From NCBI GenBank assembly GCA_030649945.1, contig JAUSFE010000104.1, positions 6,004 through 70,003 on the forward strand: 64,000 bases of DNA, written 5' to 3'. Below are positions 1-24,825 of the stretch, piece by piece. Positions within the stretch are counted from its first letter, which is position 1, and every line of letters begins with the position of its first letter. This DNA comes from Dehalococcoidia bacterium (GTDB lineage: Bacteria; Chloroflexota; Dehalococcoidia; SM23-28-2; RBG-16-64-32). The translations under genes and the position numbers were made by a program. The notes beneath the pieces are model-generated. The model did not search any database, had not been told where the DNA came from, and was given only the letters and a program-made list of their open reading frames with translations.

Positions 1-116
1 ACAGTGCGCGCTCCGGGACCCAGCACCCGGGTCGCACCCGGCGACGGCGGGGGAGCGCAGGCGCCACGACAGACCCTTCGTTCCTCAGGGTGACAGGTTA
101 GCGATAACATAGTCCC

Positions 117-160: not shown

Positions 161-173
161 CCTGAACGCCACT

Positions 174-259
174 TGTCATCCTGAGCGCCGAACACGCTTG
201 CTCGTGGCGATCACGCATCTTCGCGAAGGGATCTGGGGTGGGGCAGACCCTCGCTGCGC
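174..259. repeat. ~85-bp repeat element (copy 1) with core 'cttcgcgaagggatctggggtggggcagacc', lying between the duplicated moaD 5' ends
   Basis: A 31-nt segment is near-identical to one at 54204-54233, and a flanking 'tgtcatcc(t/c)gagc' motif is shared. Confidence 0.55.
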
Positions 260-295
260 GGCCAGCGGGGACCCGCAGACCCGGACAAAGCAGCC

Positions 296-529
296 ATGAA
301 GATAACCGTCGAGCTCCAGGCCTACCTCGAGCAGTACGCGCCGGACGGCCGGGGCGTCTTCGACTGCGAACTGCCGGCTGGCGCGCGCGTCTGGGACCTT
401 GTGCGCAAGCTGGGCGTGCCGGACGAACTGGCCAACGTCGTCGTCGTGGGCAACACGGCGACGGACTTGGAGTACGAGCTGAGCGAGGGCGACCGCGTCA
501 CGCTGATCCCGCCGATCGCCGGCGGTTAA
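296..529 (+). CDS. moaD: MoaD/ThiS-family sulfur-carrier protein (77 aa, C-terminal Gly-Gly)
   Basis: Small ubiquitin-like ORF ending in ...PPIAGG; typical size and GG terminus for this family. Confidence 0.7.
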   Translation: MKITVELQAYLEQYAPDGRGVFDCELPAGARVWDLVRKLGVPDELANVVVVGNTATDLEYELSEGDRVTLIPPIAGG

Positions 530-727
530 GAGCACCCCCGGATCTTCAGCCCGTCGCCGACGCCCCAGGGCTGACTCTGCAGCTACAGCTTCAGTAACAA
601 TTGCCCGGCCGCTGCCGTCAAATTGTTGACAACGGTTTGCGCTTGCGCTAGCCTTGCAAATGCGACCAGTTGCAGTTGCCATTGATAGCTCCGGCACTGC
701 GAAATTGCCAAACAAACTGGACCTACC

Positions 728-1174
728 ATGAGCTGTGAGACAGAGACCGCCATCGCCCTCAGGGACGCCGGGCAGAAGGTGACGCCCCAGCGCATGCTCA
801 TCCTCTGCACGGTGCGTCATGCGCGCGAGCACGTCACCGCCCCCGGGCTCATCGAGGAGGTGCGCCGCGCGTATCCCTTCCTCGATCCCTCCACCGTCTA
901 CCGCACCCTTTCGTCGGCGGCGGCCCTGGGGCTCGTCAGCGAGACGGACATGGGCGCCGGGGACACGGAGTACGAGTGGATCGGCAAGGACCGCCACCAT
1001 CACCTGATCTGCCGCTCCTGCGGTGACGTCACCTCGCTCGATAACAGCTACCTGGATAGCCTGGCCACCGCCCTCTACGACGAGCTTGGCTTCCGGGCGG
1101 ACCTCGGCCATTTCGCCATCTTCGGCGTCTGCGCGCCGTGCCGGGCCCGGTCCGGGGCAGCAGCAGGCGACTGA
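728..1174 (+). CDS. Fur-family metalloregulator (Fur/Zur/Nur-like)
   Basis: Winged-helix N-terminus with ...TPQRMLIL... and a C-terminal HHHLICRSCG...CAPC metal-binding region; placed immediately upstream of a Ni/Co transporter. Confidence 0.85.
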   Translation: MSCETETAIALRDAGQKVTPQRMLILCTVRHAREHVTAPGLIEEVRRAYPFLDPSTVYRTLSSAAALGLVSETDMGAGDTEYEWIGKDRHHHLICRSCGDVTSLDNSYLDSLATALYDELGFRADLGHFAIFGVCAPCRARSGAAAGD

Positions 1175-1183
1175 GCCGAAGCG

Positions 1184-2254
1184 ATGTTCGAGCTGCTCTC
1201 CGCCTCCACCCCGTTCGGTTTCTCCCCGCCGGCCCTCTCGATCGCCGGCTCCGCTGGCGTAATAGGCGCGGCCATCGCGCTCGGCATCCGCCACGGCATC
1301 GACTGGGACCACATCGCCGCCATCACGGACATCACCAGCACGACCGCTGCGGTGGATACCGGGGAGAAGTGGCTGGTCAGCGAGCCCGGCGTGATGCTCA
1401 CGGACGAGTCCCATCACAAGCTCGCAGGCGCGGCGGCGTCCGCGGGCACGGCCTCCGCGCAAGTCGCCGTGGAGGAGGGAGAGCCGTCTCACACGCACCG
1501 GCACCTGTCCGTCCTCCACCACCCCCACAACGGGCCGGCGACCGCGCGCAACGGTCACCTCGGCGCGACCATCGATACGTTCGTGCGCAAACAACGGCCG
1601 GCCCTGCTGCTGGGGACCATGTACGCCCTGGGCCACGGCAGCGTCGTCTTCGCGCTGGGGCTGCTTGCCCTCCTGGCGCGCGAGTTCCTGCCCGACTGGA
1701 TCGACCCCGTGATGGAGCGTGTCGTGGGCGTGACGCTGCTGTTCCTGGCGGCGTACCTCTTCTATTCTATCTACCGCTTTTTCCGCGGCGGCGACGAGTT
1801 CCAGATGAGAAGCCGCTGGATGCTCGTCTTCGCGGCTGTCCGTAACGGCTTTGAGCTGATCCGGTCCCGCCTGCTGGGGCGGCCACACCATCACGTCCAC
1901 GAGGCGCAGCGATACGGCGTGCGCACGGCCTACGGCATCGGCATGATCCATGGCGTCGGCGCGGAGACCGGGACGCAGGTGCTGGTGATCACGACCGCGG
2001 TGGGCGCCGGCAGCCAGCTGATGGGCGTCGTCGCCCTCGCCGGCTTCCTCGTCGGCCTGATCATCTCGAACTCTGTCGTCACCGTGATCAGCGCCGCGGG
2101 CTTCGTCTCCTCGCGTCAGCGGCAGTGGATCTACGTAGCGGCGGGCATCTTCGCGGCAGTCTTCAGCCTGGTCGTGGGGACGTTCTTCCTCCTCCGGGCG
2201 TCAGACATCCTGCCGGACCTGGACCGCTTCTTCGGCTGGCTGGGCCCGCGCTAG
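1184..2254 (+). CDS. NicO/RcnA-family nickel/cobalt transporter with His-rich loop
   Basis: Multi-TM protein with a GIRHGIDWDHIAAITD (HxxxxDH) signature and a His-rich loop HTHRHLSVLHHPHNG. Confidence 0.6.
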   Translation: MFELLSASTPFGFSPPALSIAGSAGVIGAAIALGIRHGIDWDHIAAITDITSTTAAVDTGEKWLVSEPGVMLTDESHHKLAGAAASAGTASAQVAVEEGEPSHTHRHLSVLHHPHNGPATARNGHLGATIDTFVRKQRPALLLGTMYALGHGSVVFALGLLALLAREFLPDWIDPVMERVVGVTLLFLAAYLFYSIYRFFRGGDEFQMRSRWMLVFAAVRNGFELIRSRLLGRPHHHVHEAQRYGVRTAYGIGMIHGVGAETGTQVLVITTAVGAGSQLMGVVALAGFLVGLIISNSVVTVISAAGFVSSRQRQWIYVAAGIFAAVFSLVVGTFFLLRASDILPDLDRFFGWLGPR

Positions 2255-2290
2255 AGGCGGGGGCCAGCCGCCGGCCCGGCATCCAGACTA

Positions 2291-2905
2291 ATGCCGCTTT
2301 CCGTCCTCCTGCACTTCGGTGGCGCCGGCACCTATACCGCCGCCTTCATGGTTTCAGTCGCCTTCGTGCTCGTTTTCGTGTTCAGTTTTGCTGTAGGCAG
2401 GCTGCCCGAGGGCGTTACGCGTTGGAGCGGGGCCTGGGCGGCGGCCTGGCTGCGCGCCTCTCTGCCCCGCCTCACGGTGGCCGGCGTCTTCGCCGGCGGC
2501 CTCTTCCTGGCCTCGAGCCTCTCGGGCGGCGGCGACGGCGGCACAGCCGGGAACGCGGCCCTCTGCAATCGCCCGCTCCCGCCCGTCACCTCGCAGCCGG
2601 TAACTGAGCAGCGCCTGCAGGCGGCGATCGCAGACATGCGGCGCGTGGGAGAGGCGGCGCGCAGGGGAGACAGCGACCAGGCGCGAGTGGTTTTCTACGA
2701 GGGCGGCTCACACAACCTGACCCACGACATCGACAGGCCCCTGAGAACAGCCGCTGCGGGGCTCGCCCGGGACCTCTGCCTCAGCATGGTGGAGCTGGAG
2801 CGCCAGTTCACGGGCAAGCTGGACGCCGGGATCATCGCCCGTGAGGCCAACGCCTCGGCCGGCGTCCTGGAGAAGGCGGGCGGGGTGCTGGCGCTGGCAC
2901 CGTGA
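2291..2905 (+). CDS. Hypothetical membrane-anchored protein
   Basis: N-terminal TM helices; coding periodicity; no recognisable domain. Confidence 0.35.
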   Translation: MPLSVLLHFGGAGTYTAAFMVSVAFVLVFVFSFAVGRLPEGVTRWSGAWAAAWLRASLPRLTVAGVFAGGLFLASSLSGGGDGGTAGNAALCNRPLPPVTSQPVTEQRLQAAIADMRRVGEAARRGDSDQARVVFYEGGSHNLTHDIDRPLRTAAAGLARDLCLSMVELERQFTGKLDAGIIAREANASAGVLEKAGGVLALAP

Positions 2906-2914
2906 GCGCCTGCG

Positions 2915-3280
2915 CTACGCCGGCGCCACCTTGATATCGTTGCCCTCCACCTGCACGGGATACGTCTTTATGGGTTCGCTGGGCGGAGGGCTCACAACAT
3001 CTCCCGTCCGCACGTTGAACTGGCCGCCGTGGAACGGGCACTCCACAACGTCATCCACGAGCAGACCTTCGCCCAGGGGGCCGGCCCGGTGCGTGCAGGT
3101 GTTGCTGAAGGCGACGAACTCCCCGTTGACGTTCGCGATCGCCACCTCCTCGCCGCCCACCTCCACAATCTTCATCTCGCCCGGCGGCACCTCGTCCACA
3201 GTAGCCACCTTCACGTAGTCGGCCATGCCAGCTCCTCCTGCATAAGCGAAGTATTCGGTGTCGCAATCATAACAGGCCAC
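2915..3280 (-). CDS. Rieske [2Fe-2S] ferredoxin (small oxygenase ferredoxin component)
   Basis: CTHRAGPL...CPFHGGQF motif (CxH-x17-CxxH), 121 aa. Confidence 0.8.
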   Translation of the reverse strand: MACYDCDTEYFAYAGGAGMADYVKVATVDEVPPGEMKIVEVGGEEVAIANVNGEFVAFSNTCTHRAGPLGEGLLVDDVVECPFHGGQFNVRTGDVVSPPPSEPIKTYPVQVEGNDIKVAPA

Positions 3281-3435
3281 CGGCTCTATTGCAGCGCCCT
3301 TTGCGGCCGTGTTACCATGCGCTGGACAGTGCTGCTGTCTTGACCTTTAAGGCGGTCCCGTGAGGCTGCCAAGGAGCGATAGTGCTGACGCAGACCTGCG
3401 TCCCCGCTAAGAACACATACAGGCCGGCCGGCGGT

Positions 3436-3466
3436 CCCTCCCCCTGTTGCGGGAGGGCCTTTTGTT
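3436..3466 (+). terminator. Putative pyr-leader attenuator hairpin (intrinsic terminator) upstream of pyrR
   Basis: ccctccc-cctgttgc-gggaggg followed by ccttttgtt; its position matches the PyrR-regulated leader terminators described in Bacillus-type pyr operons. Confidence 0.5.
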
Positions 3467-4028
3467 GCGGGGGCCGCGCCTCTTGAACGGCCACGTAGTC
3501 CTCTCCGCAGACGATATCCGCCGCGCCATCCGCCGCATCGCCCACGAGATCGTGGAGCGGAACCGCGGCCTGGAAGGCCTGGTGCTGGTGGGCATGCGCA
3601 CGCGCGGCGTCCCGCTGGCCCAGCGGCTGGCCGCCGCCATCCAGGAGTTCGAGGGGGCAGCCGTGCCCGTCGGGACGCTGGACATCGGCCTCTACCGCGA
3701 TGACATCGCCTCCCTGGAACTGCGGCCGCACATCCAGCCCACGGAGCTGCCGGGCGATATTGACGGCAAGCGCGTGGTACTGGTGGACGACGTGCTCTAC
3801 ACGGGCCGCAGCATCCGCGCCGCCCTGGACGCCCTCACGGACTTCGGCCGCCCGGCCAGCATCCAGCTGGCGGTCCTCGTGGACCGCGGCCACCGGGAGC
3901 TGCCCATCCGACCGGACTACGTGGGCAAGAACATCCCCACTTCCCTGCACGAAGAGGTGGAGGTCTGCCTGGAGGAGGCCGACGGCCGGGATGAAGTGCG
4001 CCTTGTGCGCGGAGAGGGCGAAAGATGA
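3447..4028 (+). CDS. pyrR: PyrR, bifunctional pyr operon regulator/uracil phosphoribosyltransferase; true start probably TTG at ~3483
   Basis: [18 protein letters not shown]... and the PRPP-binding [20 protein letters not shown]; alignment to B. subtilis PyrR suggests the ORF's first ~12 codons are leader. Confidence 0.85.
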
Positions 4029-5059
4029 GCCGGGAACGCTTGTCCCCGGAACCCGCCTCAGGCGGGCCGGTCGCCCCTGCTATCGAGACGAAACCCCGCG
4101 CCGGCTGGACGCGCAGCCACCTGCTGGACCTTGACGACTTCACTCCCGGGGAGATGGAAACCGTCATGGAGACGGCGGGTGCCATGAAGGAGGTGCTGGG
4201 CCGCGAGGTACCGCGCGTGCCGGCGCTGCGCGGCAAGACGATCATCACCCTGTTCTACGAGGCCAGCACCCGCACCCGCGCGTCCTTCGAGCTGGCCGGC
4301 AAGGCGCTGGGCGCCGACGTCATCAACGTCGCGGCCGGCGGTTCCAGCGTCGAGAAAGGCGAGTCGCTTATCGATACCGTGCGCACGCTGCAGGCGGTGG
4401 GCGCGGACGTGCTCATCATGCGCCACCCGTCGTCGGGGGCGCCGTACCTGGTCACGCGGCACGTGGAGTGCAGCGTGATCAACGCCGGCGACGGCTGGCA
4501 CGCGCACCCCACGCAGGCGCTGCTGGACGTTTACACCATGCGCGCCCACCTGGGCGAGCTGCGCGGACGGCGCGTGGTCATCGTCGGCGATATTGCGCAC
4601 AGCCGTGTCGCCCGCTCCAACATCTGGGGCCTGGCCGCGGCCGGCGCGGAGGTTGTGCTCTGCGCCCCGCCCACGCTGCTCCCGGCCGGGATGCGCCCGG
4701 GCGAACCCGGGCCGGAGGAGCCGCTCGCCCTGCCACGCGTGGAGGTGGAGACCAACATCGAGCGCGCCATCGCCGGAGCGGACGTCGTCATGGCGCTGCG
4801 CCTGCAGAAGGAGCGCATGCAGTCCGGACTGCTGCCCTCGATACGTGAATACGCCACGCTCTACCAGGTGACGGAGCAGCGGCTGGCGCTCGCCCGGCCC
4901 GGTGCGCTCGTCATGCACCCGGGGCCGATGAACGAGGGCGTGGAGATCTCGCCCGCCGTGGCCCGCAGTCTGCAGTCCGTGGTGGACGAGCAGGTGGCCA
5001 ACGGCGTCGCCGTGCGCATGGCGGTGCTTTATCTGATGGCGCGGGGGAAGCTGTCGTGA
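4025..5059 (+). CDS. pyrB: Aspartate carbamoyltransferase catalytic subunit
   Basis: [19 protein letters not shown] and HPTQALLD motifs; ATGA-type overlap with the pyrR stop. Confidence 0.9.
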
Positions 5060-5088
5060 CGGGGCGGCTGCCGGCAATGCGCAACGCC

Positions 5089-5116
5089 GTAGGGGTCGTT
5101 CGCGAACGATCCCTAC
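5089..5116. repeat. 28-bp palindrome GTAGGGGTCGTTCGCGAACGATCCCTAC (family B), intergenic pyrB-pyrC
   Basis: Near-perfect inverted repeat; a perfect copy of the same family lies inside the pyrC CDS at 6204-6231. Confidence 0.7.
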
Positions 5117-5135
5117 AACCGCTTGCCTTCCCACG

Positions 5136-6482
5136 ATGTCCAGGAGGTCGCGGATGACCAGCCTAGCCATTCGCGGCGGGCGGGTGATCGACCCGGCGAA
5201 CGGCGTTGACGCCGTCGCCGACGTGGTCATTGCCGACGGGCGCGTCGCGGCCGTCGGGCCGGACGCCGGCAAGGACGCCGCCGAGACGATCGACGCCCGC
5301 GGGCTCGTCGTCTGCCCGGGGTTCGTCGATATCCACGCGCACCTGCGAGAGCCAGGCTTCGAGCACAAGGAGACGATTGCGACAGGCACGCTGGCGGCGG
5401 CGCGCGGCGGCTTCACCACCGTCTGCGCCATGCCCAACACCGAGCCGCCAATCGACAACGCGGGCGCGGTCGAGTTCGTCCTGCGCACCACGCAGGCCCA
5501 GGGCGCCGTCCGCGTCCTGCCTATCGCCTGCGTCACGAAGGGCCGCGCCGGGCGGGAATTGGCCGAGCTGGCGGAGCTGGCGCAGGCGGGCGCGATCGCG
5601 TTCAGCGACGACGGTGCGCCTGTGGCCGACGCCCACCTGATGCGGCGGGCGCTGGAGTACGCCGGCATGCTCGGCGTGCCCGTCATCGACCACTGCGAAG
5701 ACCCCTCGCTGGCCGCGGGCGGCGTCATGCACGAAGGCTGGGTGTCCACCCGCCTGGGCCTGCGCGGCGTCCCCGCCTCGGCCGAAGAGGCGATGGTGGC
5801 GCGGGACATCGCTCTGGCCGAGCAGACGGGGTCGCACGTCCACATCGCGCACGTCAGCACGGCGGGCGCTGTGGACCTCATCCGCAATGCCAAGGCGCGT
5901 CGCGTCCGCGTCACGGCCGAGGTGACGCCGCATCACCTGGCGCTGACGCACGAAGCCGTTCTCACCGGCCCCGGAGAGACGCCGGGCGGACTGGCCTACG
6001 ACACCAACGCCAAGGTCAACCCGCCCCTGCGCACGCCGGCCGATACGGATGCCTGCCTCGCCGGGCTGCTGGACGGCACGATCGACTGCATCGCCACGGA
6101 CCACGCGCCGCACGCCGTCCAGGACAAGCTGTGCGAGTTCGACGCCGCGGCCTTCGGCATCAGCGGCCTGGAGACGGCGCTGGGGCTCCTGCTGACAACC
6201 CGCGTAGGGGCGGTTCGCGAACCGCCCCTACAGCGTCTGATCGAGGCGCTCACCATCGCCCCCGCACGGACGCTCGGCCTCGACGCCCGCATCGCGGGGC
6301 TGGGCACGCTGTCGCCGGGCGCACAGGGGGACGTCACGATCATCGACCCCGAGGCGGAGTGGGTTGTCGAGCCGGAGACGTTCGCCAGCAAGGGCAAGAA
6401 CACGCCGCTGGCGGGACGCAGGCTGACGGGGCGCGTGGTGGCGACGGTGTACGGGGGACGGGTGGTGTTCGATGACCGCTAA
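5136..6482 (+). CDS. pyrC: Dihydroorotase
   Basis: DIHAHLREPG...; DHAPH; amidohydrolase fold. Confidence 0.9.
   Translation: MSRRSRMTSLAIRGGRVIDPANGVDAVADVVIADGRVAAVGPDAGKDAAETIDARGLVVCPGFVDIHAHLREPGFEHKETIATGTLAAARGGFTTVCAMPNTEPPIDNAGAVEFVLRTTQAQGAVRVLPIACVTKGRAGRELAELAELAQAGAIAFSDDGAPVADAHLMRRALEYAGMLGVPVIDHCEDPSLAAGGVMHEGWVSTRLGLRGVPASAEEAMVARDIALAEQTGSHVHIAHVSTAGAVDLIRNAKARRVRVTAEVTPHHLALTHEAVLTGPGETPGGLAYDTNAKVNPPLRTPADTDACLAGLLDGTIDCIATDHAPHAVQDKLCEFDAAAFGISGLETALGLLLTTRVGAVREPPLQRLIEALTIAPARTLGLDARIAGLGTLSPGAQGDVTIIDPEAEWVVEPETFASKGKNTPLAGRRLTGRVVATVYGGRVVFDDR
6204..6231. repeat. 28-bp perfect palindrome GTAGGGGCGGTTCGCGAACCGCCCCTAC (family B) inserted in-frame within pyrC
   Basis: Perfect inverted repeat encoding ...RVGAVREPPLQ... 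inside dihydroorotase. Confidence 0.7.
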
Positions 6483-7605
6483 AGCCCTCCTCGTCCTCCA
6501 GGACGGCACCGTCTTCAGCGGCAAGCCCCTCGGCGCGCCCGCCCATTCCCACGGCGAGGTGGTGTTCTCCACGGCCATGACCGGCTATCAGGAGATGCTT
6601 ACGGATCCCTCGTTCGCGGGGCAAGTGCTGGTGCTCACCTACCCGCTGGCCGGCAACTACGGCATCAACCCGGAGGCCGTGGAGTCGAAGCGCATCCAGG
6701 TGCGCGGCCTCGTCGTGCACGAGGCCTGCGAGCGGCCCTCGCACTGGCAGTCGGAGATGACCCTGCACGACTACCTGGCGTCGCAGGACATCCCCGGCAT
6801 CGCCGGCGTGGACACGCGCGCCCTCACCCGCCGCCTGCGCCGCGAGGGGGTGACCATGGGCGCCATCACGTCCGACGAGACGGCGGGAGAGGCGCTGGCC
6901 CGTCTGCGCTCGCTGCCCGGGTACGGCGAGACGGACTTCGTGCGCGAGGTGAGCACGGACAAGCCCTACGAGTGGCAGCCTTATCCCCCGCTGGGTGTCA
7001 GGCTTCAGCCTGACACCCAGCGGCGCCACGCTGCGTCCGCCCTCCGGCGGATCGTCGTCATCGACAGCGGCGTCAAGTACAACATCATGCGCCTGCTGGC
7101 GGCGCGCGGCTGCCGGGTGACGGCGCTGCCATCGCACGCCTCCGCGGACGACGTGCTGTCGCACAAGCCGGACGGCGTCGTGTTCTCCCCCGGCCCGGGC
7201 GACCCCGCCTTCCTGGACTACCAGGTGGCGACGGTCAAGCAACTAATCGGGCGCGCGCCGGTGCTGGGCATCTGCCTGGGCCACCAGGTGCTGGGCCGGG
7301 CGTTCGGGGCGCGCACCTTCAAGCTGAAGTTCGGACACCGGGGCGCTAACCATCCGGTGCGCGACCTGGAGACGGGCCGCGTGCACATCACGGCCCAGAA
7401 CCACGGCTACGCGGTGGATCCCGACGGTCTCTCGGCGGACATCGAGGTCTCGCAGGTGCACCTGAACGACGGCACCTGCGAGGGGCTGCGGCACCGCACG
7501 GAGCCCGTCATCTCGATCCAGTACCACTCAGAGGCCTCGCCGGGGCCGCTGGACAACGTCTACGTCTTCGACCGCTTCGTGCAGATGATGGATGGCGATA
7601 GGTGA
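6472..7605 (+). CDS. carA: Carbamoyl-phosphate synthase small (glutaminase) subunit
   Basis: GICLGHQ catalytic Cys, HGYAVD, YHSEASPGP; overlaps the pyrC stop. Confidence 0.9.
   Translation: MTAKALLVLQDGTVFSGKPLGAPAHSHGEVVFSTAMTGYQEMLTDPSFAGQVLVLTYPLAGNYGINPEAVESKRIQVRGLVVHEACERPSHWQSEMTLHDYLASQDIPGIAGVDTRALTRRLRREGVTMGAITSDETAGEALARLRSLPGYGETDFVREVSTDKPYEWQPYPPLGVRLQPDTQRRHAASALRRIVVIDSGVKYNIMRLLAARGCRVTALPSHASADDVLSHKPDGVVFSPGPGDPAFLDYQVATVKQLIGRAPVLGICLGHQVLGRAFGARTFKLKFGHRGANHPVRDLETGRVHITAQNHGYAVDPDGLSADIEVSQVHLNDGTCEGLRHRTEPVISIQYHSEASPGPLDNVYVFDRFVQMMDGDR
6993..7018. repeat. 26-bp perfect palindrome GGGTGTCAGGC-TTCA-GCCTGACACCC (family A) inserted in-frame in carA
   Basis: Lies within a ~20-aa segment (QPYPPLGVRLQPDTQRRHAASALRR) that is absent from E. 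coli and Bacillus CarA between PYEW and the IVVID/VVAYDFG block. Confidence 0.7.
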
Positions 7606-7643
7606 TGTACAATAAGCGCATCAATATGTGATGAGGTGAACTG

Positions 7644-7901
7644 ATGCGCACGACGCTGAATATCGATCCGAAACTCCTCGAAAAGGTGGTTGCGATTACG
7701 GGCGAGAGGAACAAAGGGAAGGCCGTAGATCGCGCCATGGATGAGTTCCTCCGCCGGAAGGCAGTCGAAAAACTGCTGGCCGCACGCGGCAAGTTCCGCC
7801 TGCATGTCAAACACGAAGAATGGGAAGAAGCTGATCTCAAGGTCGAACTTGAGCACAAGAGGAGCAGAAGGTGGTCATCGCCGACGCGGATGTCTGGATA
7901 G
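7644..7901 (+). CDS. vapB: VapB-like type II antitoxin (Arc/MetJ-type, DUF2191-like)
   Basis: MRTTLNIDPKLLEKVVAITGERNKGKAVDRAMDEFL...; immediately precedes and overlaps a PIN toxin gene; lower GC than flanks. Confidence 0.65.
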   Translation: MRTTLNIDPKLLEKVVAITGERNKGKAVDRAMDEFLRRKAVEKLLAARGKFRLHVKHEEWEEADLKVELEHKRSRRWSSPTRMSG

Positions 7902-8269
7902 ACTACTTCGAACGTTCGTCATCACGGACCGGCCAAGCGCTCGATCGGTTGATCCGAAGCGGGCGCACGGCTGTTGCAGAACCGGTCCTGGCCGAACTCG
8001 TGCGAGGCACGCAGGGTGACGACGAGCTTCAGGAACTCAAGGAGATGCTAAGTGGGGTCCCGTACGTCGAGATGAGCCGTGAGACCTGGGTGCGGGCCGG
8101 CCGGATCGCACACGACCTCGACAGGAGGGGAACGCGAATACCGGTCGTGGACATCTTCATCGCCTCGCTGGCAATCGAAGAGGGGCACGAAGTCTTCACC
8201 CGCGACCGCCACTTCGAGCGCATTCCTGGGTTGCGTCTGTACAAGCCGAAGGGGGCTTCCGATGCCTGA
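7871..8269 (+). CDS. vapC: VapC PIN-domain ribonuclease toxin
   Basis: GTG start; VIADADVWIDY...PVLAEL...D...FIASLA: PIN acidic residues. Confidence 0.7.
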   Translation: MVIADADVWIDYFERSSSRTGQALDRLIRSGRTAVAEPVLAELVRGTQGDDELQELKEMLSGVPYVEMSRETWVRAGRIAHDLDRRGTRIPVVDIFIASLAIEEGHEVFTRDRHFERIPGLRLYKPKGASDA

Positions 8270-8738
8270 CCCCACGTACCGCCAGGCCACGATGGACGAC
8301 GCCGCCGCCATCGCCGCGATCGGCGCGCTGGTGTGGGACGAGTTCGGCGAGCGCAGCGGGCTGCCCGGCCGCATGACGGACGACGGCGTGCGCGGCCGTC
8401 TCTCCGAGTGGGGCGCCAAGGGTGCGATGTTCGTCTGCGACGCGGGCGGCGGCCTCTGCGGCTTCGCGGCCGTGCAGCCGGACCCTTCGGCAGGCTCAGG
8501 GCAGGCTCCACACCCGCGGGAGGCGGTGATGGGCGTCTGGGTGGCGCCGTCCGCGCGCGGCAAGGGCGTGGGCACGGACCTGGCGCTGATGGCCACGGAC
8601 TTCGCGCGCGCGGCGGGCTACCAGAAGCTGCGCGGCACCATCCCCGAAGGCAACGAGAGCGCGCTCTCGTTCTTCGGCGAGATCGGCAGCCTCGCGCAGA
8701 TGGTGGGCCAAGGCATGGAGTACGAGCTGCCGCTGTGA
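8262..8738 (+). CDS. GNAT-family N-acetyltransferase
   Basis: MPDPTYRQATMDDAAAIAAI...VWVAPSARGKGVGTDL (acetyl-CoA-binding motif A); ATG at 8262 overlaps the vapC stop. Confidence 0.7.
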   Translation: MPDPTYRQATMDDAAAIAAIGALVWDEFGERSGLPGRMTDDGVRGRLSEWGAKGAMFVCDAGGGLCGFAAVQPDPSAGSGQAPHPREAVMGVWVAPSARGKGVGTDLALMATDFARAAGYQKLRGTIPEGNESALSFFGEIGSLAQMVGQGMEYELPL

Positions 8739-8750
8739 GGAGATAACGTA

Positions 8751-9548
8751 ATGAGCGACGAAGCCGCCGATGCCGCGACGGTCATCCAACTGTTGAGAGA
8801 AAAACTCAAAGAATTCGACGAGAATCCCGATGTCAAGCAGTTCTCAGGAGGCACCTTCCGCGCTTTCGCGACATCGGTTGATAGTATCCTTGCGCGAGGC
8901 TTGGGCTCAGGAGGAATGAGACTTAGAACCGCGTGGCACATAGCTGCGAGCAACCTTCCTTGGCCCAACACGATGATAACACTGGGAGCGCAAGTCACTT
9001 ACTTAGAGGCCATGTTCGAGGCAAGACTTCCGGAAGTGAGGGGCACGCTGGAGGCAATCATCAGCGAGCTTGAAACATTCGGTGCCCCAGACATGCATCA
9101 GGAGACGCAGCCATCACCGCCCATTCGCCCAAGAGTTTTTATCGCACACGGAGGCGAATCGGAGGCTCTCAACAAGCTGTGCAACTTTCTCGACGAACTT
9201 GGCCTGAAGTCGTTGGTCGTCGAGCGCCTGCCCAGCGAAGGTCGGTCGGTGAACGGAAATGTAGAGCACTACCTGGACATGGCTGACTGTGCCGTTGTCC
9301 TCGCAACTGGGGACGACGTCGTCGACGGCAAGCTTCAGCCACGCGCTAACGTCCACATCGAGATCGGGCGGTTCCAGGAGCGATTCCCGCATCGGATCAT
9401 CTACCTTCTGGAGGAAGGAGCCGCCTTTCCCTCGAACGTCAGCGAGAAGGTTTGGGAGCGTTTCAGTGACAGCAACATGGAGAAGGCAATCGTCAAAGTG
9501 GTTCGTGAGGTTAGGGCGTTTGGCCTTCTTGGCGGGTCGACATTATAA
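8751..9548 (+). CDS. Two-domain protein: unknown N-terminal domain (~1-125 aa) plus C-terminal TIR-like (COG4271-type) nucleotide-binding domain; candidate anti-phage effector
   Basis: C-terminus RVFIAHGGESEALNKLCNFLDELGLKSLVVE...AVVLATGDD resembles the KVFIVHGHD...TIR-like domain family; GC ~53% versus ~70% flanks. Confidence 0.5.
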   Translation: MSDEAADAATVIQLLREKLKEFDENPDVKQFSGGTFRAFATSVDSILARGLGSGGMRLRTAWHIAASNLPWPNTMITLGAQVTYLEAMFEARLPEVRGTLEAIISELETFGAPDMHQETQPSPPIRPRVFIAHGGESEALNKLCNFLDELGLKSLVVERLPSEGRSVNGNVEHYLDMADCAVVLATGDDVVDGKLQPRANVHIEIGRFQERFPHRIIYLLEEGAAFPSNVSEKVWERFSDSNMEKAIVKVVREVRAFGLLGGSTL

Positions 9549-9607
9549 GCGTGAAGCCCGCCAGCGCTCTCACCGCCGGGCCCATCGCTCTGCGCCCGGC
9601 GGTTCCA

Positions 9608-9946
9608 CTACTCGCGGGGCCCCTCGTACACCACGCGGCCGGTGCGGATGATCTCGCGCAGGAAGGAGTGACGGCCGGGGTTATGGTACTCGCTGGACGG
9701 GTAGCCGATGGGCGCTAGCCGCCGATCGCGATCCAGGCTAGCCAGGGCAATGATCTCCTGCCGTTTCCACATGGGCACCCCTTCGAAGTCTGTTGAGATG
9801 ACCGCTACGTCAATGTCGCTATCCTCGTGCGGTCTGCCGTTCGCATACGAGCCGTACAGCACAATAGCGTCGACGTTTATCGCCGCCGCCAGGAGCCGCA
9901 CGAACTCGCCGATTACCGCTTCTAGCTCAGTCGCTGCAACAACCAC
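9608..9946 (-). CDS. Nucleotidyltransferase (MNT-type, Pol-beta superfamily) antitoxin/toxin partner
   Basis: ...IVLYGSYANGRPHEDSDIDVAV... minimal NTase motif GS-x9-DxD. Confidence 0.75.
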   Translation of the reverse strand: MVVAATELEAVIGEFVRLLAAAINVDAIVLYGSYANGRPHEDSDIDVAVISTDFEGVPMWKRQEIIALASLDRDRRLAPIGYPSSEYHNPGRHSFLREIIRTGRVVYEGPRE

Positions 9947-10290
9947 GCGTAGAACTCATTCGACTGCCTGTAGTAATTCTCAGTCGTATCGGCTGGCATT
10001 TCAAGCGGCTCATCGCCGTACCGGCTGGGGATGTATTGCTCGGTCAACTTGGCGAGCAGAGCCAATTGCTCCTGAGATATGGCCAGGCCGAGCTCAGCCG
10101 CCAGGCGGGGTAGGTCGTGAACCTTGCGGTAGGCGCCCTTCCTTTCGATCAGCCCTGCTTTCAGCAGCTTCTCTATCGCCTGGTGCAGGTGGAACAGACA
10201 ACTCAGCGTATAACCCGCTTGCCAGGCGAATTCGGCGACCGACACATCCTCGGCCGCTCGGGCTAGCCACCGCTCCGTCTCCGGCTTCAT
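9922..10290 (-). CDS. HEPN-domain protein (HEPN/MNT module partner)
   Basis: All-helical 122-aa protein overlapping the MNT gene by 25 nt; typical HEPN-MNT organisation. Confidence 0.6.
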   Translation of the reverse strand: MKPETERWLARAAEDVSVAEFAWQAGYTLSCLFHLHQAIEKLLKAGLIERKGAYRKVHDLPRLAAELGLAISQEQLALLAKLTEQYIPSRYGDEPLEMPADTTENYYRQSNEFYAWLLQRLS

Positions 10291-10330
10291 GCCCGCATCC
10301 TAGCCTCCCGTCCCGAGGGCGGTCAAACCC

Positions 10331-13674
<3,344 letters not shown>

Positions 13675-13678
<4 letters not shown>

Positions 13679-14535
13679 TACGGCTCGAGCGCGCCACCGT
13701 CGTCTCCCAGGAGCAGGTCTACGAGAACACCTACCTGATGTGGCTCTCCTGCCCGCCCGTCGCGAAGGGCGCCTCGCCCGGGCGCTTCCTGATGGTCCGC
13801 TGCTCTGACGGCAACGACCCGCTGTTGCCACGCCCGATGAGCTTCCACCGCTTCCGCCGCCAACCTTCACCCGAAGGTCAGGCTCTCAGCCGCCAACCTT
13901 CACCGGGGGGTCAGGCTCTCAGCCTGACAGGGGAGCGGGGTGGGGCACAGCCCGCAACCCAGTTCGCCATCCTCTACGACGTCCGCGGCCGCGGTACCGC
14001 CTGGCTCTCCACCCGCAAGTCCGGCGACGCCATCCGCGTCTTCGGGCCACTGGGCCGGGGCTACAGCCTGAGCCCGGCGGCGCAGAACGTCCTGCTCGTC
14101 GCCGGCGGCCTGGGCGTGGCCGCCGTTGTGGCGCTCGCGGACGAGGCCATCGCCGCCGGCAAGGCCGTGACCCTGTTGCAGGGCGCCCGCACCGTGGCGC
14201 GCCTCTTCCCCGCCCACCTCCTGCCCACCGCGGTCGAGGCTGTCTCCGCCACAGACGACGGCAGCGAGGGTCACCACGGTTATGTCACGGAGATCCTGCC
14301 CGGCTACCTCCCGTGGGCGGACCAGGTCTTCGCCTGCGGCCCCGGCCCGATGTTCGCGGCAATGGCGAACACGATGCGACAGGCGCGCTCCCGCAAGCCC
14401 GTACAGGCGCTGCTGGAAGAGCATATGGGCTGTGGTACAGGCGTCTGCTACGGCTGCGCTGTGTTCACGCGCAAAGGCGTGCGCCTGGTCTGCAGGGACG
14501 GCCCGCGCTTCGAGCTGCGGGAGGTGTTCACGTAG
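13675..14535 (+). CDS. pyrK: Dihydroorotate dehydrogenase electron-transfer subunit (FAD/[2Fe-2S])
   Basis: FNR-like fold with a C-terminal [11 protein letters not shown] cluster motif; follows carB. Confidence 0.8.
13862..13928. repeat. Tandem ~30-bp duplication ending in palindrome GTCAGGCT-CTC-AGCCTGAC (family A), inserted in-frame in pyrK
   Basis: caaccttcacc(c/g)g(aa/gg)ggtcaggctctcagcc x2 encodes [22 protein letters not shown]. Confidence 0.65.
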
Positions 14536-14583
14536 AGACCCCCCGGCGGGGCGTCTCTGAGCAGCGCCCCTGATATAATCCGG

Positions 14584-15051
14584 TTGAAGCTTCCCATGCA
14601 CGCCCATCCCGGTCCCGGTCCCGCCGGCACGGTCGCCCTCGCGGCGGCCGTCGTCGCCGTAGCCGCCGCCGTCCTTGTCGGCGGCGTCATCGTGGCCATC
14701 GCCATGGGCGGCGGCTTCGGCGGCTGGAACATGCAGGGCCACATGGGCGGCATGATGAATCGCGCCGGCAATTCGCCTCAGACGCCGGTGGTGGCGAGCC
14801 AGCCGGAGGTCTCGGTCGAGATCCGTAATTTCGAATACTTCCCGCGAGACCTCACCGTCGACGCCGGTGCCACCGTCACCTGGACGAACCGGGATTCCGC
14901 GCCGCACACGGCCACGCACACGGACGGCGGCTGGGATACGGGCATCCTGGACAAGGGCGAGTCCGCCGCCATCGCGTTCGACGCCCCGGGCGCCTACGGC
15001 TACTTCTGCTCGGTCCACCCCGCCATGAAGGCCATCCTGACCGTGCGCTAA
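14584..15051 (+). CDS. Cupredoxin (plastocyanin/amicyanin-like blue copper protein) with Gly-rich N-terminal membrane/His region
   Basis: Type-1 Cu ligands H...CSVHPAM at the C-terminus. Confidence 0.7.
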   Translation: MKLPMHAHPGPGPAGTVALAAAVVAVAAAVLVGGVIVAIAMGGGFGGWNMQGHMGGMMNRAGNSPQTPVVASQPEVSVEIRNFEYFPRDLTVDAGATVTWTNRDSAPHTATHTDGGWDTGILDKGESAAIAFDAPGAYGYFCSVHPAMKAILTVR

Positions 15052-15117
15052 CGTTGACACCGCTTGCGCGGGCAGCCTTTAATTGTCGCGCAATCTCATA
15101 TCAGGAGGACGCACCCC

Positions 15118-15945
15118 ATGGCCCCAGCCAAAGTCAGTGTCGGCAACGCCGAGATCATCTCCCTGGTCGATACGCCCATGGAGTTCCCCTGGAACCTCTT
15201 CTTCCCCAATAACAGCCCGGCGGACTTCGAGCCGTACCGGGGCCGATATCCGGAAGCCTTCGGGCCAGCCGGCTTCCACACCAACGCCGTCTGCTACGCC
15301 ATCCGGTCGCAGGGCAAGACGATCCTCTGCGACACCGGGATTGGGCCTGGGCCCATCGCTTTTCTGGGCGGCATCCGCGGCCGCCTGCTGGAGGACATGC
15401 GGGCGAAGGGCGTGCAGCCGGACGACGTGGACATCGTCGTGCACACGCATCTGCACGGCGATCATGTGGGCTGGAACCTCTCCGCGGACGGCGCCCCGAA
15501 CTTCCCGCGGGCGAAGTACTACGCCCCCCAGGCGGACTGGGACTTCTTCCGCAAGGCGCTGGACGCGAACCCCCAGATGGCACAGGTTATCCCGCTCCAC
15601 GACCAGGGCAGGCTGGAGCTGTTCTCCGGAGAGCTGACCCTGACGCCCGAGGTGACGACGCTGCCGACGCCCGGACACACTCCCGGCCACTGCAGCCTGC
15701 TGGTCTCATCCGGCGGAGAAGGGGCGCTCGTTACGGGCGACCTGGCGCACCACCCGGCGCAGGTGGACCGCACGGAATGGTCATCCGGCTTCGACACGGA
15801 CCCGGCGGCGGCCGGTCGGACGCGGGCGAAGGTCTGCGACCGCCTGGAGGCGGAGGGCCTGCTCGCAGCCTTCTGCCACTTCCCGGAGCCCGGCTTCGGC
15901 CGGCTGGTGCGGCTGGAGGGCAGACGGGTCTTCCGGGCGCTGTAG
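15118..15945 (+). CDS. MBL-fold metallo-hydrolase
   Basis: HTHLHGDHVGW zinc motif; AGGAGG RBS 10 nt upstream of the ATG at 15118. Confidence 0.75.
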   Translation: MAPAKVSVGNAEIISLVDTPMEFPWNLFFPNNSPADFEPYRGRYPEAFGPAGFHTNAVCYAIRSQGKTILCDTGIGPGPIAFLGGIRGRLLEDMRAKGVQPDDVDIVVHTHLHGDHVGWNLSADGAPNFPRAKYYAPQADWDFFRKALDANPQMAQVIPLHDQGRLELFSGELTLTPEVTTLPTPGHTPGHCSLLVSSGGEGALVTGDLAHHPAQVDRTEWSSGFDTDPAAAGRTRAKVCDRLEAEGLLAAFCHFPEPGFGRLVRLEGRRVFRAL

Positions 15946-16152
15946 GGCCCTTTCTGTCACCCTGACGGAGGAAGGATCTGTCCCTGCGACGAGGCCACGC
16001 ACCGAGACGCCCTTCCGGGACTCTGGATGATCGCTGCGTCGGTCAGAGTCCCGAGGCGTGCATGCACTGCCAGGGTGCATGCCCTGGACAGATTCTTCCC
16101 TACGGTCAGAACGACAGTTGGCGAGGGCCGGGATGCCAGGCTGGGGGCTCCC

Positions 16153-17253
16153 CTACGCGCCCGCCGGCGCCGGCTCCGCGAAGAAGTGCTGGACGCTGGT
16201 CTTCGCCGCCACCTTCTGGGCGATCGCCGCGAACGCCTGCGCCACCGGCGACCCGGGGTCGCTCTCGACGATCGGGACGCCGAGGTCCGCGCCGGTGCGC
16301 ACGTCCACCTGGAGCGGTATCTCCCCCAGGAAATCGAGCCCCAGCTCCTCGGCCGCTTCGCGCACGCCCCCGTGGCCGAAGATCTCCGTGCGCTCGCCGC
16401 AGTGGGGGCAGACGAAGTAGCTCATGTTCTCGATCAGGCCGAACACCGGCACACTCAGCTTCTCGAACATGGAGACCGCCTTCACGGCGTCTTCCAGGGA
16501 CACGGCGTTCGGCGTTGTGACGATGACGGCGCCCGCGATCGGCGCTTCCATCGCCGCGCTCATGGAGGCGTCGCTGGTGCCGGGCGGCAGGTCGATGATC
16601 AGGTAATCCAGCTCGCCTTCCGCGCCCCACGGCAGGTCGTGCATGAGCTGGCGCACGCCCGTGCCGATCATCGGCCCGCGCCAGACCACCGGCAGCCCCC
16701 GGCGCAGCACGAACCCCAGGGAGGCAACGCGCAGCCCGTAGCGCTCCACGAAGGCGAGGCCGCTGTCGGCCTGGAAGCCCTGTGGGATGCCCATCATCGT
16801 CGGTACGTTGGGCCCGGTAAGGTCCGCGTCCAGCAGGCCCACGCGCGCGCCGAAGTCCTTCAGCGCCAGCGCCAGATTCACCGCCACGGTGGACTTGCCC
16901 ACGCCGCCCTTGTTCGACGCCACGGCGATAATGTTACGCACGCCTTCAATCACCTTCGGGCCCCTGCCCACGCCTGTCGAGCGCACGGCGGCGTCCATCG
17001 TCACTTCCGCATGGCCGACGCCGGGCAGGGCCAGGATCAGGTCCTGCGCCTGCTTCTTCATCTCCTCGCGCACGGGGCAGGCCGGAGTGGTCAGCACGAT
17101 CTTCACGCTCACGTTGTCACCGCAGACGTTGACGTCTGCTTCGGAGACGAAGCCCAGGCTGACTATGTCGCGGTGCAGGTCCGGGTCCTGGATCTGGCTC
17201 AGCGCCGCCAGGACGGCAGCCGCCGTTACCTGGCTATCCTTCTCTTGTGCCAT
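16153..17253 (-). CDS. apbC: Mrp/ApbC/NBP35 Fe-S cluster carrier ATPase with N-terminal DUF59
   Basis: ASNKGGVGKST deviant Walker A and a CPHCGE cluster-binding motif. Confidence 0.85.
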   Translation of the reverse strand: MAQEKDSQVTAAAVLAALSQIQDPDLHRDIVSLGFVSEADVNVCGDNVSVKIVLTTPACPVREEMKKQAQDLILALPGVGHAEVTMDAAVRSTGVGRGPKVIEGVRNIIAVASNKGGVGKSTVAVNLALALKDFGARVGLLDADLTGPNVPTMMGIPQGFQADSGLAFVERYGLRVASLGFVLRRGLPVVWRGPMIGTGVRQLMHDLPWGAEGELDYLIIDLPPGTSDASMSAAMEAPIAGAVIVTTPNAVSLEDAVKAVSMFEKLSVPVFGLIENMSYFVCPHCGERTEIFGHGGVREAAEELGLDFLGEIPLQVDVRTGADLGVPIVESDPGSPVAQAFAAIAQKVAAKTSVQHFFAEPAPAGA

Positions 17254-17277
17254 TTGATTTCCTTCCCGAATGTGGGG

Positions 17278-17940
17278 TTACTGAAGGCCGGACGCTGCCT
17301 GCCGGGCCCCGTCACGGACGATAAACCGGCAGGAGTCCGCGCCCTCGCTCTGGAACTGCGTGCACTCCACCTCGCGGCCCAGCAGGCTGCCCAGGAGGGA
17401 GAGGTGCCAGTCGCACAGGTCCCGGTGGGAGTCCACCACGCGCCGGTAAACGCAGTTGTGGTCCGCGATCTCGAACTCCCGCCCGTCGCCCGTCCACTCC
17501 GCGAAACCGCCTTCTTCGCGCAGGATGTCCGCGACGATGGCCACGCGCTCCCCCAGCGGCTTGTCGCGCACGCGGGACTCGTGCTGGCGGTAGACGCGGT
17601 CGGCCATGCGCATGAGCAGGAGCCGCTTCTTGTCCGGGGCGCTGAGGCCGGCGATGTCCTCCGCCTGGAGGGAGGCAACCTCCTCCAGCACGAGGTTGGC
17701 CAGGCGGTCGTAGCGCTTGGGAAACCTCTCCTGGCCGCCGTCGCTCAGGCTGAAAAGCAGATGTGGGCGGCCCTTGCGCTGCCTCTCCTCGCGTGAGACT
17801 ACCAGGCCGTCGCGCTCCAGCACTGCCAGGTGCTGGCGCACCGTCATGCGGGCCAGGCCGAACTCGTTGGCCAGCGCATCCACCGTGCTGTCGCCCGCGC
17901 GCTTCAGGTGAGAAAGAATACTCTCTTTTGTAGATTGCAT
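17278..17940 (-). CDS. Winged-helix (ArsR/SufR-like) transcriptional regulator with C-terminal Cys-rich sensor domain
   Basis: N-terminal HTH (...LARMTVRQHLAVLERDGLV...), four spaced Cys in the C-terminal half; adjacent to apbC. Confidence 0.55.
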   Translation of the reverse strand: MQSTKESILSHLKRAGDSTVDALANEFGLARMTVRQHLAVLERDGLVVSREERQRKGRPHLLFSLSDGGQERFPKRYDRLANLVLEEVASLQAEDIAGLSAPDKKRLLLMRMADRVYRQHESRVRDKPLGERVAIVADILREEGGFAEWTGDGREFEIADHNCVYRRVVDSHRDLCDWHLSLLGSLLGREVECTQFQSEGADSCRFIVRDGARQAASGLQ

Positions 17941-24780: not shown

Positions 24781-24825
24781 CGTCCCGGACGTGTTGAGGC
24801 TGTGACCTCGCGACCCTTCCGAAGA

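Follow-up and report, generated by a model that had tools for sequence, protein, structure and literature searches.

Introduction

Defence hotspots flanked by core genes are established in Pseudomonas aeruginosa (PMC10250203) and in Escherichia coli (PMC10121019). A locus that invites the same comparison is described here from a 64,000-nucleotide stretch, hereafter the window, of contig JAUSFE010000104.1 of a Dehalococcoidia bacterium (Chloroflexota), in which carA and carB, the genes for the two subunits of carbamoyl-phosphate synthetase, are separated inside the pyr operon by a spacer of 2725 bp. By open reading frame (ORF) calling and Pfam, this spacer encodes six genes: a vapB–vapC pair, a GNAT acetyltransferase, a two-domain TIR-like protein and, on the opposite strand, a HEPN–MNT pair. 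We consider it reasonably probable that the carA–carB junction of this PyrR-controlled operon is a long-lived slot, held between core genes, in which small genes of the toxin-antitoxin (TA) and abortive infection (Abi) type have been gained, lost and replaced.

Loci at which low-GC alleles are exchanged at a fixed place between conserved flanking genes are also represented by the O-antigen and capsule clusters, and in Neisseria gonorrhoeae a repeat-rich variable spacer has reportedly been observed between carA and carB. No description of the split carA/carB slot was found in the literature searched, the coverage of which was incomplete, so that an earlier description is possible.

Gene content and composition of the carA–carB spacer

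The end of carA at 7605 and the TTG start of carB at 10331, both taken from an earlier reading of the DNA alone (the original prediction), were borne out by ORFs and Pfam matches, and the six spacer genes it had named were all recovered by Pfam, PADLOC and NCBIfam (Table 1). These six account for every ORF between carA and carB, and neither an integrase nor a transposase was found among them.

The lower GC content that had been proposed for the spacer holds for most of it, in a patchy manner. As a whole, the spacer has 61.7% GC; the window altogether has about 66%, its remainder outside the spacer 66.6%, and the pyr genes on either side about 70%. By segment, the values are 58.8% for 7606-8261, 73.4% for the GNAT gene (8262-8738) and 59.3% for 8739-10330. 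At third codon positions (GC3), five of the six genes lie between 0.65 and 0.77 (vapB 0.67, vapC 0.74, TIR-like 0.65, MNT 0.77, HEPN 0.76), whereas the GNAT gene, at 0.93, falls within the 0.87-0.94 spanned by pyrB, pyrC, carA, carB and pyrK and is native in composition. The same contrast was observed beyond the window: the GC content of the genes carried between carA and carB (the cargo) in related loci is usually below that of their flanks, and the GC3 of the TIR-like gene is below that of carA in 10 of the 10 slot loci compared (for instance 0.57 vs 0.82 in L162 and 0.62 vs 0.86 in L169), and it is lower in L176 (0.70 vs 0.91) and L177 (0.41 vs 0.79) as well. These data support the view that the spacer genes, with the exception of the GNAT gene, are accessory genes of TA/defence type with a foreign-looking composition.

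Table 1. Features of the carA–carB spacer and of the surrounding pyr operon, by position in the window
Feature	Position	Strand	Evidence
PyrR-binding leader (attenuator)	3340..3466	+	Rfam RF00515, 46.2 bits, gathering score 54, E 8e-4, full model length
pyrR	3447-4028	+	ORF
pyrB	4025-5059	+	ORF/Pfam
pyrC	5136-6482	+	ORF/Pfam
carA, left conserved flank of slot	6472..7605	+	Pfam CPSase_sm_chain + GATase
vapBC leader	7606..7643	+	-10-like TACAAT, palindrome, Shine-Dalgarno sequence
vapB antitoxin, 85 aa	7644..7901	+	PF09957
vapC PIN-domain toxin, 132 aa	7871..8269	+	PF01850, NF047959
GNAT acetyltransferase, 158 aa	8262..8738	+	PF00583
Two-domain TIR-like protein, 265 aa	8751..9548	+	PF10137; PADLOC PDC-S35
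GC-rich hairpin, convergent gap	9557..9618	both	core stem 9572-9581/9594-9603
MNT nucleotidyltransferase, 112 aa	9608..9946	-	PF18765/PF01909
HEPN-domain protein, 122 aa	9922..10290	-	PF05168
Divergent spacer HEPN/carB, 40 bp	10291..10330	-	promoter-like site (promoter scan)
8-bp inverted repeat/hairpin over carB TTG start	10319..10338	+	-14.3 kcal/mol
carB, right conserved flank	10331..13678	+	Pfam CPSase_L_D1/D2/D3 + MGS; TTG start
pyrK	13675-14535	+	ORF/Pfam

An assembly or binning artefact, that is, a chimeric contig, could be suspected because the source is a metagenome-assembled genome (MAG). The probability of this is negligible: an independent short assembly (L081, Logan SRR13727527) has the identical carA-vapBC-GNAT-TIR-like order, by which misassembly is excluded, and more than 10 other genomes share the architecture.

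A proposed slot with exchangeable occupants

Loci centred on carA were drawn from 80 genome and 80 metagenome contigs, and further loci were added through a look-up of homologues of the TIR-like protein; in loci of high GC content, HEPN and MNT genes were called by tblastn and per-strand ORF sets, and in the carA tree the entry of L004, translated out of frame, is to be disregarded. The closest relative overall is L169, with a carA 81-84% identical to that of the window, and the scan of metagenome carA genes returned none above 79%.

The arrangement between the two subunit genes differs from relative to relative. It reads carA-GNAT-carB in L087, carA-GNAT-TIR-like-carB in L162 and L169, carA-vapBC-GNAT in L086, and carA-GNAT-MNT-HEPN-carB, with the last pair on the minus strand, in L002, L003 and L004. 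In L176 (carA 68% identical), the order carA-HicA-HicB-GNAT-TIR-like-MNT-HEPN-ORF-carB, again with a minus-strand MNT-HEPN pair, mirrors that of the window with a different TA pair and with the same GC3 contrast. Because these combinations differ between relatives, vapBC, the TIR-like gene and HEPN-MNT are regarded as independent occupants; each returns at its own sub-position in some relatives and is missing from others, and its GC3 is low throughout.

Junctions were counted as occupied when at least 450 nt long, in loci with a carA at least 52% identical to that of the window, mostly from Chloroflexota. By this measure, 44 of 75 loci have an occupied carA–carB junction, compared with 27 of 130 for the other pyr junctions pooled (Fisher p = 6e-8), namely pyrB–pyrC (7/37), pyrC–carA (17/73) and carB–pyrK (3/20). 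Close relatives have tightly packed ORFs of low GC3 (0.47-0.62) at these other junctions, while the window has none; these are proteins of 161-254 aa at pyrC–carA in L001, L002, L003, L004 and L082, together with a Trypsin_2 protein at pyrB–pyrC and a 223-aa protein at carB–pyrK, the positions concerned in the other two loci being 2304-3146 in L169 and 10067-10738 in L162. The whole operon tolerates inserts, and the carA–carB junction is the preferred site.

A Pfam census of the gap ORFs of 56 loci returned HEPN (7), GNAT (7), the PF10137 TIR family (6), MNT (4), PIN (2), VapB (2), DUF559 (2) and Hypoth_Ymh (2), with single occurrences of AbiJ_NTD4, Schlafen AlbA_2, HicA, HicB and GIY-YIG. Domains of TA and Abi type predominate in this census. 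AbiU2 occurs in the gap of L031, metabolic or undefined cargo is represented by an archaeal-type PEP carboxylase and a signal peptidase, and many gap ORFs belong to no family. Three further kinds of protein were noted at this junction: one of about 138 aa that is conserved in six Dehalococcoidia (L014, L017, L024, L026, L028, L035) and matches nothing in Pfam or PADLOC; a small hydrophobic, membrane-like protein directly 5' of carB in L083 (2430-2806), whose stop overlaps the carB start; and, in L117 (3470-3815), one of about 110 aa encoded between HEPN and carB.

The original prediction had taken carA and carB to be normally contiguous and the spacer to be one foreign islet set between them. 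Contiguity as the normal state was not confirmed: relatives hold the same gene families at the same place. Directly adjoining carA and carB (<120 nt) are found in about a third of the related loci. Nor did the comparison of synteny and composition give a uniform picture: the same families do stand between carA and carB in relatives, and only the GNAT gene is of native composition. A single, recently acquired TA/defence islet inserted into a contiguous carA-carB would agree with that third of loci, with the lower overall GC of the spacer and with the GC3 of five of the six genes. Such an event is nevertheless very unlikely, given that the GNAT gene at its centre has a native composition and keeps its synteny throughout the clade, and that vapBC, the TIR-like gene and HEPN-MNT are found separately and in varying combinations, at the same sub-positions, in relatives whose carA is 57-84% identical. 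Its non-coding boundaries recur in relatives as well, the vapBC leader in L086 and the HEPN promoter spacer in L002-L004, and protein identities of 26-73% exclude these relatives as recent recipients. In addition, no tRNA gene was found in positions 1-20000 of the window and no direct repeats were found around the cargo in the window; the tRNA or tmRNA target, integrase and direct repeats of an integrase-mediated genomic island are absent. What stands of the earlier proposal is that accessory TA/defence genes separate carA from carB; what does not is their unity, the GNAT gene being native and the other modules independent.

The native GNAT gene

Wherever the locus is complete, the GNAT gene follows carA throughout the closest clade (carA 67% identical or more), although vapBC may intervene; the one exception is L088, in which an unrelated 190-aa ORF takes the expected place. 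The orthologues (L002, L003, L004, L083, L084, L086, L087, L110, L162 and L169) have 151-155 aa, end in (GM)E/QYELPL and stand directly after carA or after vapBC, with the carA stop overlapping the GNAT ATG in L084, L083 and L002. Their identity falls roughly in step with that of carA. The GNAT gene is a native, vertically inherited member of the operon in this clade; a more divergent copy (41%) follows HicAB in L176. In comparison with all orthologues, the window protein has an in-frame insertion of 7 aa, SAGSGQA (about 8480-8510), which coincides with a tandem 10-mer (GGCAGGCTCA/GGGCAGGCTC). A specific role, such as that of a short N-acetylglutamate synthase linking arginine and carbamoyl phosphate, was considered and dropped, since searches of NCBIfam and of PDB sequences gave only weak, generic GNAT matches far below the cutoffs.

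The vapBC module

VapB was assigned through PF09957 (36.9 bits, cutoff 23.4) and VapC through PF01850 (56 bits) and the NCBIfam VapC model NF047959 (84 bits, cutoff 80). The acidic residues D5/D7, E37/E42, D94 and D112 are present in VapC, their assignment to the active site being by position only. The antitoxin gene comes first and overlaps vapC by 31 nt, and the vapC stop overlaps the GNAT start. The insertion point, exactly between the carA stop and the GNAT start, is common to the window and L086; the nearest relatives of each (L082 and L111 for the window, L084 for L086) lack vapBC, and in them carA runs directly into the GNAT gene.

The leader of the module contains TACAAT (7608-7613), the palindrome CATCAATATGTGATG (7619-7633) and the Shine-Dalgarno (SD) sequence GAGGTG (7633-7638). 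That of L086 matches it, with TATACT and a perfect palindrome, CATCAAT-A-ATTGATG, while the VapBC proteins themselves are only about 50% identical; in summary form, the two leaders share a -10-like TAYAMT, a palindrome CATCAAT..TGATG and an SD sequence. The leader was not called by the consensus promoter scan, and from its parts we infer an autoregulated promoter/operator, to be taken as putative.

The TIR-like protein

The protein encoded between the GNAT gene and the convergent gap matches PF10137 with 56 bits (cutoff 24.7), and the PADLOC run that the original prediction had suggested returned a match to the candidate family PDC-S35 (PDLC05005; E 2.1e-20, residues 10-259 on positions 5-255 of a model of 264). 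An N-terminal three-helix domain (about 8-110) precedes a C-terminal TIR domain of CAP12/Pycsar type (about 128-256). In the AlphaFold2 model (predicted local distance difference test score 86), three long helices form an N-terminal bundle, and in the C-terminal alpha/beta domain a beta-hairpin immediately precedes the helix that bears the motif R198-x-N200-V-x-I-E204-x-G. R198, N200 and E204 are invariant, E204 having been checked in 42 homologues. The best solved structures in Foldseek were the TIR domain of SfTIR-STING (7un8, 25% identity), the SARM1 TIR domain and the N-hydrolase DNPH1. PF10137 has been described as a single TIR clade whose members are NADases activated by oligomerisation and carry a beta-hairpin and a catalytic Glu (bioRxiv 10.64898/2026.04.30.722052).

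For the N-terminal domain, neither Pfam nor NCBIfam gave a match, and the search of PDB sequences (E up to 1) was empty. It is homologous to the N-terminal domain of a Ymh/HEPN-type protein in the slot of L007 (hhalign 97.8%, E 8e-13), and the two proteins would represent an effector swap on a shared N-domain, which is typical of defence genes. The TIR-like protein is, on these grounds, a candidate single-gene abortive-infection effector. Searches by name for PDC-S35 gave nothing relevant in the literature covered, which was incomplete, and plasmid and phage collections held only remote TIR-domain matches (<32% identity).

When homologues were looked up regardless of context, 7 of 10 were located between carA and carB (L162, L169, L172, L174, L175, L176, L177); of the other three, one neighbours a type IIG restriction-modification gene (L164), one has unrelated surroundings (L166) and one belongs to a cluster with VapB, PIN, Phd and HEPN-MNT (L171). 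In L162 and L169 the gene stands between GNAT and carB with overlapping stops and starts. The history of the protein is incongruent with that of its host: pairwise identities of the TIR-like protein and of carA are uncorrelated (Spearman 0.04, 45 pairs), the copy of L162 is 62% identical to the window protein and that of L169, the closest relative, only 41%, and in a distance tree the copies from other contexts nest among the slot copies.

This association with the slot raises the question of whether the TIR-like protein, possibly together with the GNAT protein, is an accessory of the car/pyr pathway, for example a nucleotide N-glycosidase or a nucleotide-sensing regulator tied to carbamoyl-phosphate or pyrimidine metabolism. 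The seven homologues between carA and carB, often with overlapping codons and even in a differing operon (nadE-carA-TIR-carB in L174), would agree with such a role, as would the position of the gene under the PyrR leader and the resemblance of its fold to the deoxynucleotide N-hydrolase DNPH1, whose substrate is a modified pyrimidine nucleotide. It appears unlikely all the same. PF10137 was found in only 6 of the 56 gaps downstream of carA that were screened by Pfam, so carbamoyl-phosphate synthetase does not need the protein; its GC3 is always well below that of the operon, and its identity does not track carA. Close homologues accompany restriction-modification and TA genes (L164, L171), and structurally the protein comes closest to the TIR NADase domains of immune proteins. 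A Ymh/HEPN effector protein from the same slot has its N-domain in common with it, and over its full length it matches a PADLOC defence candidate. A defence-type occupant of the slot is therefore preferred.

The opposite-strand HEPN–MNT pair

HEPN is the first gene of the minus-strand pair and overlaps MNT by 25 nt. It matches PF05168 with 72.8 bits; MNT, matched by PF18765/PF01909, carries the GSx10DxD motif (GSYANGRPHEDSDID) and is the presumed antitoxin partner of HEPN. The pair stands between GNAT and carB in L002, L003 and L004, with MNT 62-70% and HEPN 35-42% identical to the window proteins, and is absent from L169, L162, L083 and L087.

The window has its 40-bp HEPN/carB spacer in common with L002-L004. 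On the minus strand it holds a promoter-like site, TTGACC (10326-10321), 18 nt, TAGGAT (10302-10297) and 6 nt to the HEPN ATG, of which hexamers and spacing are conserved in L002, L003 and L004. In L176, too, HEPN is preceded by the GGCAGGTCAAAC motif; because the neighbour gene there is not carB, the spacer is considered to belong to the HEPN-MNT cassette. The predicted placement implies a leaderless or near-leaderless mRNA, the alternative being a promoter inside carB together with a purine-rich, SD-like element 13 nt 5' of the HEPN start.

At the other end of the pair, the hairpin of the convergent gap folds as minus-strand RNA with -48.7 kcal/mol (z -4.5) and is followed by a U-containing tail; as plus-strand RNA it reaches -34.6 kcal/mol (z -1.7) without a U run. 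It is partly conserved in L002. It probably terminates the minus-strand HEPN-MNT transcript and would be less effective on the plus strand.

In the window (8751-10290), L117 (1612-3245), L171 (1654-3105) and L176 (5001-6616) alike, a convergent MNT-HEPN pair comes next after a TIR-like gene, the triplet of L171 not being flanked by carA and carB. That the three genes form one transferable unit was considered and rejected: in L171 the TIR-like protein is 67% identical, in comparison with 39% for MNT and 26% for HEPN, so they did not move together. The pairing may be functional, or it may merely reflect how common MNT-HEPN pairs are.

Operon context and the expression of carB

The PyrR-binding leader lies just 5' of pyrR, which it slightly overlaps, and although its Rfam score is below the gathering score, it covers the full model length. 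No second PyrR site was found in 2500-16000, and the sole leader is that at the operon start. It defines the operon pyrR-pyrB-pyrC-carA-...-carB-pyrK, context that lies outside the spacer. In the N-terminal third of pyrK a repetitive stretch was noted, which looks like a small in-frame duplication or an inserted repeat.

By the gene layout, carB is indeed placed behind foreign-type genes and directly 3' of an opposite-strand unit, as had been pointed out, and a check for an internal carB promoter had been proposed. Promoter prediction gave no sign of one: the scan, tuned to sigma-70, returned no consensus promoter on the plus strand in 7300-10800, the interval between carA and carB included, and the alignment of four genomes held no conserved plus-strand -35/-10 pair 5' of carB. 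A search for a target motif 5' of carB common to the different types of cargo found none. Terminator-like sites on the plus strand between carA and carB were limited to a single weak one (10155-10167, 5-bp stem), where about 2 would be expected in shuffled sequence. The plus-strand cargo has the orientation of the operon and is densely packed, its stops and starts overlapping or nearly so, and for this reason it would ride on operon transcription. The expression of carB probably depends on read-through within the PyrR-controlled operon: plus-strand transcripts begun at the pyr promoter, and probably at the vapBC leader as well, would cross the antisense MNT-HEPN genes into carB.

It could be argued instead that carB has its own promoter in or next to HEPN-MNT and is transcribed independently, in which case the cassette uncouples carB from carA. 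The 9557-9618 hairpin could act as a bidirectional terminator, and carB has an SD-like GAGGG of its own (11 nt upstream of the TTG) and its own start codon, with no overlap with the upstream gene. This arrangement is the less probable one: apart from the negative promoter scan and alignment, the hairpin is weak on the plus strand, and a promoter independent of the sole PyrR leader would free carB from pyrimidine control. With read-through as the preferred route of transcription, the translation of carB would start independently, at a weak TTG start within a hairpin.

The inverted repeat GGTCAA-ACCC-TTGACC, which had been placed at 10317-10334, is found in its 6-bp form at 10321-10336. It extends to an 8-bp stem, GCGGTCAA/TTGACCGC (10319-10326/10331-10338), with a local folding energy of -14.3 kcal/mol, and this stem covers the carB start codon. 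Perfect 6-bp repeats with a 4-nt spacer occur 44 times in the window, and because of this number the 6-bp repeat alone is not beyond chance. As a special element the repeat was rejected, both on this count and because its conservation is best explained by the minus-strand -35 box, TTGACC, which abuts carB codons 1-3. In L002-L004, the stem has only 5 bp and carB begins with an ATG that aligns with the TTG of the window. The 8-bp hairpin may lower carB translation in the window genome, and initiation is probably weaker here (TTG in an 8-bp stem) than in these relatives (ATG, 5-bp stem).

Two other regions of low GC content were noted in the window. One is a short trough (to 0.50) between convergent or divergent genes at 17751-18300, in which no convincing ORF was found except a 99-aa, cysteine-containing one at 18137-18436 with no Pfam match. 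The other is a 7.4-kb block at 23851-31250 with a 1628-aa Rhs-repeat protein (RHS_repeat, DUF6531, dockerin; ORF 26062-30948, minus strand) and, downstream of it on the same strand, several small ORFs without family (24029-25985); the block probably holds an Rhs toxin with immunity or orphan-tip genes.

Discussion

In the scheme favoured here, the slot would contain one native, vertically inherited GNAT gene and three independent accessory modules. The first, vapBC, would be set between the carA stop and the GNAT start under its own putative promoter/operator leader. In the second, the PDC-S35-type protein, the N-terminal helical domain would act as a presumed sensor controlling the TIR domain, and the most likely action on activation would be NAD+ cleavage leading to abortive infection. 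The third, HEPN-MNT, would be transcribed on the opposite strand from its own conserved promoter in the 40-bp spacer and end at its own terminator hairpin. Turnover would most likely proceed through recombination in the conserved flanks (carA, GNAT, carB) and not through an integrase. Low GC content, fixed position, the mismatch of cargo and host trees and the lack of mobile hallmarks resemble what is seen at allele-replacement loci maintained by flank recombination.

Several points weigh against this scheme. All comparison genomes are MAGs or metagenome contigs, and the distance trees, built at 25-70% identity, are not robust at depth. Because the closest carA is only 81-84% identical, no recent event of gain or loss was directly seen. 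Flank recombination is hard to credit where carA is only about 60% identical between lineages, and such lineages have the TIR-like family in the same slot all the same. That 7 in 10 homologues keep to the slot could be due to a functional link with carbamoyl-phosphate synthetase or with the regulation of the operon. PDC-S35 is no more than a PADLOC candidate. MNT scores 44.3 bits with the NCBIfam MntA model NF047752, below the cutoff of 60, while the Rx4-6H RNase motif is absent from the window HEPN protein and none is conserved in the four orthologues, and the pair may not be a classical TA system. Furthermore, promoter and terminator scans tuned to sigma-70 may miss those of Chloroflexota.

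The placement itself might be functional, with effector expression following the pyrimidine pool through PyrR, or with the TIR-like protein guarding carbamoyl-phosphate synthetase. We regard this as speculative and distinctly improbable, although either form would explain the occurrence of 7 of 10 homologues in the slot despite a phylogeny that does not follow the host. If it were true, a phage that drains UMP/UTP would de-repress the operon, raising the dose of the plus-strand effectors as well as antisense transcription across HEPN-MNT, and the pyr operon would be a nucleotide-depletion sensor for abortive infection.

Should the pattern of a long-lived slot hold, carA and carB would serve as a marker pair with which candidate defence genes could be collected from uncultured Chloroflexota, the PDC-S35 candidate family could be compared across a natural series that includes effector swaps on a shared N-domain, and the link between PyrR regulation by the pyrimidine pool and the expression of toxin or abortive-infection genes would become testable. 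For annotators, a split carA/carB is the normal state of the lineage here, and neither an error nor a recent insertion.

Comparison with known systems

Taken singly, the modules resemble well-known families to different degrees. The vapBC pair is an ordinary type II TA module in having vapB first, an overlapping PIN toxin gene, a leader palindrome and a VapC match above the NCBIfam cutoff; the unusual feature is that it fits exactly between the stop of carA and the start of the GNAT gene. The HEPN-MNT pair shares with the type VII HepT-MntA systems an overlapping bicistron of a minimal HEPN and a minimal nucleotidyltransferase with the GSx10DxD motif, and differs from them in that its HEPN protein is of PF05168 type without Rx4-6H and its MNT scores too low for the MntA equivalog; HepT toxins characterised so far are assigned to the DUF86 family. 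With the TIR effectors of CAP12/Pycsar type (PycTIR/Cap12, TIR-STING 7un8), the TIR-like protein shares PF10137, the invariant Glu in R-x-N-V-x-I-E-x-G and the predicted hairpin before the catalytic helix, and its closest solved structure is the TIR domain of SfTIR-STING. Unlike CBASS and Pycsar loci, the slot and the flanking operon of the window are without a CD-NTase or pyrimidine cyclase by ORFs and Pfam, and three helices make up the N-terminal domain, in place of a STING, SAVED or cyclic-nucleotide-binding domain. Because no cyclase is nearby and the N-domain matches no sensor family, the protein is not assignable to either system.

As a locus, the carA–carB slot shares with the hotspots of Pseudomonas and E. 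coli a fixed position between housekeeping genes, a varying cargo, an atypical composition and, as is often the case there, the lack of a recognisable mobile element; its cargo may likewise be rich in TA, Abi and defence domains. Hotspots of this kind are not known from the interior of an essential biosynthetic operon, with a cargo that would be carried along by operon transcription. It differs in lying within a biosynthetic operon, between two subunit genes of one enzyme, in a cargo of small one- or two-gene units that are mostly co-oriented and tightly packed, in a class-level range of genomes (carA 52-84% identical), and in the strong tie of PF10137/PDC-S35 to the slot. Like the O-antigen and capsule loci, it keeps a constant position and conserved flanks, its GC is persistently low and its alleles depart from the host tree, while cargo and biology are others; the Neisseria gonorrhoeae spacer, in turn, is said to consist of non-coding repeats and not of TA/defence genes. 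Set against these systems, four aspects appear to be new: the intra-operon position between subunit genes, the co-oriented and tight cargo, the class-level persistence in uncultured Chloroflexota, and the association of one candidate family with the slot.

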